A DNA stretch of 63,629 bases, the filler included, from Collodictyon triciliatum (lineage: Eukaryota), in the NCBI GenBank assembly GCA_043381765.1. It is 17 parts of 17 records of this genome, joined end to end, with 100 filler letters (N's around TTAATTAATTAA, not from the genome) between each part and the next. Parts side by side here need not be neighbours in the genome. Positions count along the whole stretch, not along the records: positions 42,590 to 46,432 come from JBHJMP010006805.1; 16 more parts are not named here. One strand, 5' to 3'. The notes under the pieces were generated by a model, which saw only the letters and a list, made by a program, of their open reading frames with translations, was not told the origin of the DNA and made no database searches. Positions 43,573-46,432 of this stretch are shown here, piece by piece (position 1 is the stretch's first letter; the number at the start of each line of letters is the position of its first letter). A program made the translations under genes and the position numbers.

Positions 43573-46432
43573 ATGAGATTGAATTCAAGGTCGTTTGCAG
43601 CTCTGTTGCTGTTGGGTGAGTTTTAAATTATTTGTTTAATTTTATTGACTTCAAATTACAGATTTTAATTGATATATTTTTAGGATTGATGCTCCACTGC
43701 CAATTGTGTCCTGTTGAAGGGCAAGATGATTCGATACGCACATTGACTGGTCATACTAATAGCATTACCAGTGTTGCTGTTACTCCTGATGGCTCAAAAA
43801 TCATTTCTGGGAGTGATGATAATACAGTCAAAATTTGGAATCTTTCTGATGGAGCTTTGATTCGCACGTTGACTGGTCATACTGATTNNNNNNNNNNNNN
43901 NNNNNNNNNNNNNNNNNNNNNNNNNNNNNNNNNNNNNNNNNNNNNNNNNNNNNNNNNNNNNNNNNNNNNNNNNNNNNNNNNNNNNNNNNNNNNNNNNNNN
44001 NNNNNNNNNNNNNNNNNNNNNNNNNNNNNNNNNNNNNNNNNNNNNNNNNNNNNNNNNNNNNNNNNNNNNNNNNNNNNNNNNNNNNNNNNNNNNNNNNNNN
44101 NNNNNNNNNNNNNNNNNNNNNNNNNNNNNNNNNNNNNNNNNNNNNNNNNNNNNNNNNNNNNNNNNNNNNNNNNNNNNNNNNNNNNNNNNNNNNNNNNNNN
44201 NNNNNNNNNNNNNNNNNNNNNNNNNNNNNNNNNNNNNNNNNNNNNNNNNNNNNNNNNNNNNNNNNNNNNNNNNNNNNNNNNNNNNNNNNNNNNNNNNNNN
44301 NAAATTGTTTCTGGAAGTGATGATAATACAATCAAAATCTGGAATCTTTCTGATGGAGCTTTGATTCGCACATTGACTGGTCATACTCATTCGGTTCTCA
44401 GTGTTGCTGTTAATCCTGATGGGTCAAAAATCGTTTCTGGAAGTGATCATAATACAATCAAAATCTGGAATCTTTCAGATGGTGCTTTGATACGCACATT
44501 GACTGGTCATACTGATTCGGTTTACAGTGTTGCTGTCACCCCTGATGGTTCTAAAATTGTTTCAGGAAGTTTCGATAATACAATCAAAATCTGGAACCTT
44601 TCTGATGGAGCTTTGATTCGCACATTGACTGGTCATACTCATTCGGTTCTCAGTGTTGCTGTTACTCCTGATGGCTCAAAAATTGTTTCTGGTGGTGGTT
44701 ATGAAGGTGGAACAATCAAAATCTGGAATCTTTCTGACGGAGCTTTGATTCGCACATTGACTGGTCATACTGATTCGGTTTACAGTGTTGCTGTTACTCC
44801 TGATGGCTCAAAAATTGTTTCCGGTGGAAGCTATGATTATACAATCAAAATTTGGAATGTTCCTGAATTACAATGCATTCTTGGTCAGTTTTATGATTTA
44901 GAATCAAAATCTTGTCAGCCATGCCCATCTGGAAGCTACAGTTTTGGAGGGACTTCATCTTGCATTATGTGCCCTACTGGTACATACAATCCATCAACTG
45001 GCCAGTCTGCCTGCCTTTCATGTGCAACTGGTACATACAACCCATCAAATGGTTCCTCTAGTGTTGATTCCTGTCTTTCATGCGCAGCTGGCACATACAA
45101 TCCATCTACGGGTTCCTCTAGTGTTGGTGCTTGTCTTTCATGTGCAGCTGGCACATACAATCCATTTATTGGTCAATTAACCTGTTTTTCATGTGCAGCT
45201 GGCACATACAATCCATTTATTGGTCAATCTGCTTGTCTTTCATGTGCAGCTGGCACATACAATCCATTTATTGGTCAATCTGCTTGTCTTTCATGTGCAG
45301 CTGGCACATACAACCCATCAACTGGTTCCTCTAGTGTTGATTCCTGTCTTTCATGCGCAGCTGGTACATACAATCCATCTACGGGTTCCTCTAGTGTTGA
45401 TGCTTGCCTATCATGTGCCATTGGCACATACAATCCATTTATTGGTCAATTAACCTGTCTTTCATGCGCAGCTGGCACATACAATCCATCTACGGGTTCC
45501 TCTAGTGTTGATGCTTGCCTATCATGTGCCATTGGCACATACAATCCATTTATTGGTCAATCTGCTTGTCTTTCATGTGCAGCTGGCACATACAACCCAT
45601 CAACTGGTTCCTCTAGTGTTGGTGCTTGTCTTTCATGCGCAGCTGGTACATACAATCCATTTATTGGTCAATCTGCTTGTCTTTCATGTGCAGCTGGCAC
45701 ATACAACCCATCAACTGGTTCCTCTAGTGTTGGTGCTTGCCTTTCATGTGCAGCTGGCACATACAATCCATTTATTGGTCAATCTGCTTGTCTTTTATGT
45801 GCAGCTGGTACATTTAACCCGTCAATTGGCTCTGTAAGTATTAATGCTTGTCTTTCATGTACAGCTGGTACGTATAATCCATATAGTGGTCAGTTTTCTT
45901 GTCTTTCCTGTACGACTGGCACATACAACCCATCAAATGGTTCCTCTAGTATTAGTTCTTGTATTTCATGTGCACCTGGAACCTATAGCTCATCAACTGG
46001 CCAAATAGCTTGTACTTCCTGTCCGAGTGGAACATATAATCCATTCACTGGCTCTTCAAATCCTAGCTCCTGTATAGCTTGTGATGCTGGCACTTATAAC
46101 CCTATAAATGGTTCTACTTCTATTGAAAATTGCCTGCCATGTGGACCAGGGACGTTCAATTACAAAAAAGGACAGGCTTTATGTGATCCATGTGAGCCAG
46201 GAACTTACACCAGCGATGAAGGAAGGAAGAACTGCCTAGATTGTCCACCTGGACAATACAACAGCAAATACGGTCAATCTGAATGCAGTATGTGTCCTTT
46301 TGGAACATATAATCCTATTAGAAAGAGCACTAACTCGTCGTCCTGTATTCAATGCGAAGTAGGTACATACAATAGTGTCGATGGAAAATCAACTTGTTTT
46401 GATTGTCCTGCGGGATTTTATATGGATGAGAG
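43573..46432 (+). CDS. Signal-peptide WD40 protein with a long Cys-rich repeat stalk (paralog of 19826), internal gap, 3' partial
   Basis: ATG at 43573; intron 43616-43683 gives MRLNSRSFAALLLLGLMLHCQLCPVEG-QDD. Near-identical WD repeats to about 44860, then at least 27 CxxC-xxGTYNP units (GCC2_GCC3/ephrin-receptor-like). Confidence 0.9.

Follow-up and report, generated by a model that had tools for sequence, protein, structure and literature searches.

Locus and array of the C6805 gene

The window analyzed here is a stretch of 63,629 nucleotides from Collodictyon triciliatum (GCA_043381765.1), which consists of 17 scaffold pieces with N44-linker-N44 joins taken from an assembly (G000) of 75 Mb in 14,576 contigs. 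The WD40 gene under study lies on contig C6805 (JBHJMP010006805.1; positions 42590-46432 of the window) and comprises a leader with a predicted signal peptide, a WD40 array that contains a 414-N gap, and a cysteine-rich stalk, where the gene is truncated by the contig end. A first propeller gene, hereafter the first paralog, is located on a separate contig (C6799). The features of the two genes are as follows; the putative signal peptide of the C6805 gene was judged by eye from the spliced model.

43573..43615, plus strand: C6805 exon 1, ATG and first 14 codons, hydrophobic leader (predicted signal peptide); the spliced model is open into the WD40 array
43616..43683, plus strand: C6805 intron, 68 nt, GT-AG, phase 1, a DNA-based prediction from the spliced model
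43684..43721, plus strand: remaining C6805 leader, with a putative VEG-type cleavage motif at its end, recognized by eye
43722..43887, plus strand: C6805 WD40 blade 1 and start of blade 2
43888..44301, no strand: gap within the C6805 array, 414 N, in register with exactly four 126-bp units
44302..44342, plus strand: end of the C6805 post-gap blade, right loop SDDN; longest exact match to another array (71 nt to locus L035)
44343..44468, plus strand: C6805 blade HSVL/SDHN, left cassette 44386-44403
44469..44594, plus strand: C6805 blade DSVY/SFDN, left cassette 44512-44529
44595..44726, plus strand: C6805 blade with the second HSVL cassette and a two-codon insertion (GGYEGG); 44700-44726 matches blade 4 of L034
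44727..44855, plus strand: last C6805 blade, second DSVY cassette, one-codon insertion (GSYDY); similar loops in L037 and L049
44856..46432, plus strand: short exit and cysteine-rich stalk of C6805, open at the contig end
19826..19960, plus strand: leader region of the first paralog; exon 1 19826-19862, intron 19863-19922, then the rest of a different leader class
19961..20840, plus strand: array of the first paralog, seven blades from the shared homogenized pool
20841..22767, plus strand: downstream part of the first paralog, two older diverged propellers and the start of a cysteine-rich stalk, open at the contig end

The leader class of the C6805 gene was common to 40 scored loci, and many paralogs have this leader end ahead of blade 1; the class of the first paralog was also present on four fetched loci. 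The C6805 stalk matched Pfam PF07699 (Ephrin_rec_like) in 13 stretches with an E value of 8.7e-93, and its closest counterpart was the stalk of L054 (C4786), with 90-94% identity. Between 44977 and 45980 (plus strand) the stalk, too, is repetitive: units of 51 bp and 60 bp form a mosaic tandem array with periods of 51, 60, 111, 171, and 333.

An earlier note on this DNA had described the same DNA blocks in both propellers behind unrelated leaders, and both statements held. A 54-mer that is exact at 44334 recurs with one to three mismatches in four other copies of the C6805 gene and, with 1, 5, 4, 3, and 2 mismatches, at 20198, 20324, 20450, 20576, and 20702 of the first paralog, where none is exact. 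The best local DNA match between the leaders was a 40-nt stretch of AT-rich upstream DNA with 77.5% identity (E 6e-4); both leaders are hydrophobic, and each is interrupted by a phase-1 GT-AG intron, after 43 coding bases in C6805 versus 37 in the first paralog. The alternation of HSVL and DSVY left halves is present in the last four blades, for which alone it is established, and each 18-nt left cassette occurs exactly twice within the window; pre-gap blade 2 begins with D where strict alternation predicts H. The varying right loops SDHN, SFDN, GGYEGG (two additional codons), and GSYDY (one additional codon) were verified, as was the gap inside the array. The tryptophan codons flanking that gap are exactly 4.0 units apart, so the array has nine blades, provided that the gap length is correct.

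The idea that the left halves were drawn from a shared pool had to be abandoned. The HSVL and DSVY cassettes were found in none of the 60 other fetched loci and are private to the C6805 gene; thus, the alternation arose within that gene and reflects a two-unit duplication or conversion there. Blade 4 of L034 (G000:C5121), whose left half differs, repeats exactly the 27 nt at 44700-44726 that contain the YEGG insertion. We read the array as the probable product of such a within-gene event, after which right loops would have been imported or mutated.

Family size, architecture, and membrane module

A genome search with the 126-bp unit gave 290 matches in 40 scored of 214 candidates, and a 19-mer from the unit occurred 140 times, compared to zero for the reversed control. 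Of 78 fetched loci, 72 carried WD40 units, which together with the two genes of the window makes at least 74 contigs and bears out the large family suggested earlier. In full-length members the leader is followed by the WD40 array, a stalk whose length is very variable (several-fold among paralogs), DUF7630, and the helical module. A membrane module was also present on 17 of the 78 fetched stretches, and an FG-GAP-like propeller was found further downstream in six loci. Eight members (L047, L048, L050, L063, L076, L080, L120, and L122) carry a long Ser/Gln/Lys low-complexity linker behind the array or, in L048, behind the stalk, and in four of them (L047, L063, L076, and L122) the FG-GAP-like propeller lies beyond this linker. 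The frame is broken by a stop or frame change in the array or stalk of L037, L047, L049, L062, and L084, which are pseudogenes or assembly errors. Because the array sits behind a signal-peptide-like leader and ahead of a cysteine-rich stalk and membrane module, it is predicted to lie outside the cell, and the family proteins are, from their sequences, probably secreted with an extracellular topology. In a protein search with the WD-stalk junction, none of the 120 best matches had both a WD40 array and the stalk.

Blades were counted in 61 loci, 38 of which had closed, gap-free arrays. Eighteen of the closed arrays had seven blades, one had 14, three had 21, and seven scored 20; six of the latter were of the first-paralog type, in which the profile probably misses one degenerate blade. 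We take these blade counts as a sign of a folding constraint. At the upper extreme, L074 (G000:C2488) showed at least 41 WD40 blades in one frame before the contig end was reached. In L115 (C2001) and L116 (C11643), only one blade separates the leader from the stalk and the junctions are similar; these arrays have possibly collapsed through recombination between the first and the last blade.

The membrane module gave 96 matches on 92 contigs of the genome. A model of the module from paralog L032, folded from a 76-sequence alignment, reached a predicted local distance difference test (pLDDT) score of 89.5 and showed nine long helices, compared to the seven of the fold of G-protein-coupled receptors; 10 close sequences gave a pLDDT of only 48.6. 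As a single-sequence query the module found nothing among 3498 candidates, whereas a profile search returned 10,787 representatives at E up to 0.001, widespread in eukaryotes. Eight of the ten top matches that we looked up were proteins of Rigifila ramosa. Heads on the relatives of the module include RCC1, FG-GAP, and PQQ propellers, and none of the 150 matches listed had a WD40 array of this kind (one gave a weak single match). Foldseek with the module model returned no match at E 0.001 or better, and the best VIA-align match was a designed helical bundle (Z 8.0); fold searches of this sort, with no clear match among solved structures, indicate neither likeness nor novelty. None of four family members scanned matched PF06011 at E 0.01-0.1; PF06011 matches were found in 4 of 32 module relatives, one of them above the cut-off, and Atlas features gave 0.95 to a cluster with 13% PF06011. 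A profile search restricted to proteins of 3057-5000 residues gave 12 matches, among them one unnamed Tetrahymena transmembrane protein over 5% of the query, and none of the 12 was named as a cysteine repeat modular protein (CRMP).

Variable codons and probable exchange between loci

For the comparison of repeats, 503 candidate units were cut from 61 loci, and 282 units from 60 loci were kept. The filter demanded 42 codons and a linker with at least 12 of 15 residues like that of the C6805 gene, which removed 221 old, first, or indel-bearing blades; only two of the four whole C6805 blades are among the 282. On a tree of units, the repeats intermixed across genes: none of the 54 multi-unit genes was monophyletic, so that the strict clustering by gene named in the earlier note as evidence against exchange was not observed. 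Because intermixing alone could be explained by recent duplication, heads were compared with backbones. In 36 gene pairs, four-fold divergence was 0.226 for the units versus 0.526 for the membrane modules, with less divergence of the units in 34 pairs and a correlation of 0.07, in agreement with the homogenization between loci that had been proposed. The contrast is greatest between deep subfamilies, whose membrane modules differ at 0.57-0.71 and units at 0.09-0.35. Among L032, L033, and L084, identity in the leader is 85-91%, yet four-fold divergence of the membrane modules is 0.64-0.70 (leader identities with L068, 0.0-0.43, are alignment artefacts and were excluded), and the C6805 leader class is joined to the first-paralog body type in L036, L038, and L044. 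L054, the closest paralog of the C6805 gene by stalk, starts its array with another first blade, and 16-25 of 126 bases separate its units from those of C6805, close to the family median (20-23). Several loci share rare insertion loops, e.g., DWGDQ and YPD/WPD, which sit at different array positions and beside different left halves.

Contig C3452 (L110) was considered as an allele and rejected, as its identity of 98% over the 186-nt leader falls to 89% over 1.17 kb upstream; it is a paralog. Aligned to 42590-43739, L110 (G000:C3452:1-1159, minus strand) is 81-93% identical upstream and 96-100% over exon 1, the intron, and the leader, and the contig ends where the array begins. Judged from this alignment, the L110 leader may be a recent conversion tract.

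Recombination inside the repeats, another proposal of the earlier note, stood in part. Linkage measured as r2 dropped with distance along the unit (Spearman -0.154, with 0 of 2000 permutations as low), and the decay persisted for sites at least 11 nt apart (-0.093) and beyond 20 nt (-0.06, P 0.022). This smooth decay does not fit exchange confined to half-repeat boundaries. An identical left cassette was combined with a different right one in 22 of 23 within-gene pairs and 14 of 15 between-gene pairs, and identical left cassettes between genes numbered 15, compared to a null mean of 3.3 and maximum of 13. A test resembling the pairwise homoplasy index (PHI) gave P values of 0.033, 0.055, 0.0075, and <0.0005 on four single long arrays, three of them significant. 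The part that failed concerns the pooled units: here none of six settings of the PHI-like test gave a signal (P 0.76-1.0), nor did any of ten draws of one unit per gene.

We infer that recombination caused the intermixing and homogenization, and the pooled PHI-like result weighs against this reading together with several other observations. Identical right cassettes between genes numbered 126, inside the codon-shuffle null (mean 76, maximum 135). Identity was slightly higher within genes (83.1%) than between them (80.8%), the nearest neighbor came from the same gene for 62 of 276 units versus about four by shuffle, and two neighboring units occupy the same positions in the first paralog and in L061, which is plain inheritance. 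Uniformity was also favored by the sampling, since similarity to the unit was what brought the loci in and the filter removed 221 of the 503 candidate units; L128 and L129, which were found through the membrane module, have diverged arrays. The higher identity within genes, the units shared with L061, the negative pooled test, and the gene signal retained on the unit tree (210 gene-label changes, compared to a minimum of 59 and 248 for shuffled labels) would all fit birth and death without exchange: gene duplication would have spread an amplified young array, and the apparent intermixing would reflect roughly equal age and saturated variable codons. We regard this explanation as rather unlikely given the saturation of the deep-subfamily membrane modules alongside little-diverged units, the leaders discordant with backbones, and the rare insertion loops scattered over several loci at different array positions.

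A second alternative to recombination is that short-read assembly joined near-identical unit paths across loci, which would explain much of the mosaic, including the C6805 alternation. The C6805 array combines a gap with an odd blade count (nine), other arrays have one, three, or four blades, and Illumina assemblies of Podospora HNWD arrays drop or invent repeats according to the available text of PMC12222747. Of sequencing runs, a search listed one with a small share (X1, 0.12 of words) and none of RNA. Among the X1 reads mapped at 85% likeness, none bridges the C6805 array, which is left uncovered; they yielded four short contigs, namely, two 151-nt pieces identical to the stalk at a depth of 2 and a pair of partial WD pieces, one showing 10 differences and the other 5. 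On the other hand, all 282 units differ in DNA, and the longest exact matches of the C6805 gene (71 nt with another array, 67 nt inside its own) are shorter than the exact within-array repeats of at least 91 nt that the assembly resolves in nine arrays. Left and right cassettes lie ∼45 nt apart, inside one read; blade counts peak at 7 and 20-21; and the discordance of heads and backbones extends over kilobases of partly unique stalk. On balance we hold an assembly origin of the mosaic to be quite improbable. The blade number and order in the C6805 gene are uncertain, and the family-level results hinge little on either.

Five codons of the unit, numbers 17, 18, 20, 36, and 38 counted from the tryptophan, are hypervariable, with 14-19 residues each among the 282 units. 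Non-synonymous diversity (pN) was 0.62 at these codons, compared to a pN of 0.087 and a synonymous diversity (pS) of 0.295 at the other 37. The pN/pS ratio was 1.7-2.4 at codons 18, 20, 36, and 38 (and 17), as obtained by pairwise counting on recombining sequences rather than by a likelihood test, and it was 2.6 in 15 independent close pairs that are protein-identical at the other 37 codons. In the variable codons, the first two bases were 0.4-0.7 diverse, compared to 0.14-0.23 at the nearest four-fold third positions (V19, V22, S33, G34, and T39). The spacing of codons 18, 20, 36, and 38, the strongest four, (2-16-2) is that of Podospora codons 7, 9, 25, and 27, which the available text of PMC1805685 places in the d-a loop and b-c turn on the propeller top face; by this register, the variable codons of Collodictyon probably also occupy the top face. 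There were 267 different four-codon combinations in the 282 units, consistent with the combinatorial binding surfaces envisaged in the earlier note. Selected point changes seem to account for most of the diversity at the variable codons, a factor missing from that note. Selection is the probable cause rather than targeted mutation; a mutator of the diversity-generating-retroelement type was dropped, as the variable codons lack an adenine-only pattern. Reliance of the selection figures on counting, and third positions of some variable codons that are also diverse (0.47-0.62), could point to merely unconstrained surface positions or local mutator targets with no diversifying selection. We consider this very improbable, because non-synonymous diversity is 2.1-2.6 times the synonymous diversity in the same units, invariant V19 and D37 lie amid the variable codons, and all four bases are present with no one-base signature.

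Related systems, proposed function, and other features of the window

The closest parallel is offered by the NWD/HNWD genes of Podospora anserina (HET-D and HET-E as well as HET-R; PMC1805685 and PMC12222747), which, in the text available, likewise have WD40 units with a length of 126 bp and high internal identity, which evolve in concert both within loci and between them; they also show many combinations per genome and diversifying selection at two codon pairs with 2-16-2 spacing around conserved V and D. Unlike them, the Collodictyon family has no NACHT or HET domain, its array lies directly behind the leader, and Pfam found only WD40 and Ephrin_rec_like in the C6805 gene. The available text counts 10 Podospora loci, compared to more than 70 here, and has the Podospora repeats cluster “essentially by gene of origin” (PMC12222747); the Collodictyon units are more diverged (about 81-83% identity), cluster less by gene, and commonly carry b-c loop insertions, which set them apart from the units described there. 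By this analogy the family appears to work like the Podospora NWD diversification system, yet it is not an NLR and would be an extracellular (predicted) variant of the fungal HNWD system.

The Collodictyon genome also holds 44 NACHT matches, on contigs other than C6805. WD blades were present within 1.5 kb in 8 of 20 NACHT loci examined (L094, L098, L099, L101, L104, L107, L108, and L109; G000:C2771, C1971, C3215, C2561, C2673, C4067, and C2371), and they form a second homogenized pool, built on another and longer unit whose loop is of the GPNGE type and whose equivalent codons vary (14 units). A unit pool common to the surface family and the NACHT genes was rejected for the 1.5 kb seen, where 1 of 20 loci had a 24-nt match to the surface unit. 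The NACHT-linked unit shares almost no DNA with the surface unit, so homogenization is family-specific, as expected if homology is required.

In overall plan the family resembles the CRMPs of apicomplexans and ciliates, which have a signal peptide (here predicted), a cysteine-rich ectodomain, and ephrin-receptor-like modules. The available text of PMC9670195 and PMC9815656 gives apicomplexan CRMPs nine membrane helices, with the N-terminus outside and the C-terminus inside, and proposes them as contact sensors that trigger exocytosis upon contact. About nine C-terminal membrane helices are likewise seen in the L032 model; the C6805 gene ends before them. As far as described in that text, CRMPs comprise two to four genes with MAR, Kringle, or lectin heads and include neither a WD40 head nor a hypervariable family. 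The likeness described here is one of plan. The same membrane module and ephrin-receptor-like stalks occur in eukaryotic, as yet unstudied DUF7630/TRP-like multi-pass proteins (PF24633 and PF06011), with the best named relatives in R. ramosa; these often bear the other propeller heads rather than this WD40 array. The best solved-structure match of the array was PDB 2YMU, a bacterial WRAP WD40 propeller (E 2e-163). WRAP propellers have near-identical blades as well but not this leader, stalk, or membrane module, and their units, unlike those in Collodictyon, are not common to dozens of loci. In searches of the open-access literature we found no description of such a family, the phrase “extracellular WD40” occurred in none of 20 papers listed, and the available part of PMC9218822 held nothing on secreted WD40 arrays.

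We judge it reasonably likely that the C6805 gene is one of ∼75-90 cell-surface contact sensors diversified by recombination and by selection at five top-face codons. A signal peptide would export the head, one or several WD40 propellers of seven blades carried on a long stalk with disulfide bonds, and full-length members would be anchored by the nine-helix membrane module. Ectopic recombination, through short conversion tracts, unequal crossing-over within arrays, and swaps of whole 5′ heads between backbones, would keep the blade scaffold uniform over loci while moving the variable loops, and selection would drive amino-acid change at the five codons and so give each gene a different binding surface. 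Such surfaces would most likely recognize molecules of other cells (prey, parasites, or conspecifics), with the variable face distal, the stalk serving as a spacer, and the nine-helix module relaying contact inward, as proposed for CRMPs. The family is presumed to be expressed, to recognize ligands, and to signal. Two observations fit this proposal poorly. Nine of the 38 closed arrays have 3, 4, 6, 8, 15, 18, or 19 blades, and the C6805 gene is truncated ahead of any anchor: its closest paralog, L054, runs into an FG-GAP-like propeller with no membrane module on its contig, and a search for a contig continuing the C6805 gene returned only C6805 itself and four paralogs.

Variation could instead serve escape from predators, parasites, or viruses, with the proteins acting as a variable coat or as decoys. 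This would suit a large family of long cysteine-rich rods, comparable to the variant surface proteins of other protists, and the lack of a membrane module on the contigs of some members. However, only the usual binding face varies, the other exposed parts of the blade being conserved; the conserved nine-helix module exceeds what an anchor needs; and variation falls on the same codons in NACHT genes of this genome. Escape therefore seems to us an unlikely purpose. We hold a more far-reaching version of the contact-sensor proposal to be doubtful, namely, that blades and loops are still being reshuffled among the ∼75-90 loci, perhaps vegetatively, as an antibody-like combinatorial surface repertoire on a CRMP-like contact-response module, and that together with the separate NACHT pool this forms a two-tier system of outside and inside recognition with one fold.

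WD40 propellers are intracellular as a rule. If the predicted topology is right, repeat shuffling and selection, known from intracellular fungal NLRs, are here moved to the cell surface and operate at a larger scale, and the widespread nine-helix module may be a general platform for exchangeable propeller heads. How free-living protists discriminate prey, parasites, and kin is largely open, and few receptor families are known. The heads are cloneable and present five variable residues per blade on a rigid scaffold, so ligand specificity is directly testable.

Other features of the window lie apart from the WD40 genes. Most of its 17 pieces start or finish in microsatellites, as in a fragmented short-read assembly, and there is a second internal gap at 6911-7331. 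A long frame with stops and a frame change at 55124-57010 (plus strand) contains acidic-residue and zinc-finger motifs that resemble those of transposon nucleases of the Fanzor/TnpB type; Pfam gave no match on three pieces of it. A coding tandem repeat of 54/108 bp, with no convincing Pfam match, runs up to a contig end at 34207-34601 (plus strand). On the minus strand, an exon of an HID1/dymeclin family gene lies at 9252-9845 (PF12722, E 2e-7), and an intron-containing PLOD-type glycosyltransferase gene lies at 39135-40294 (PF25342, E 6e-10).

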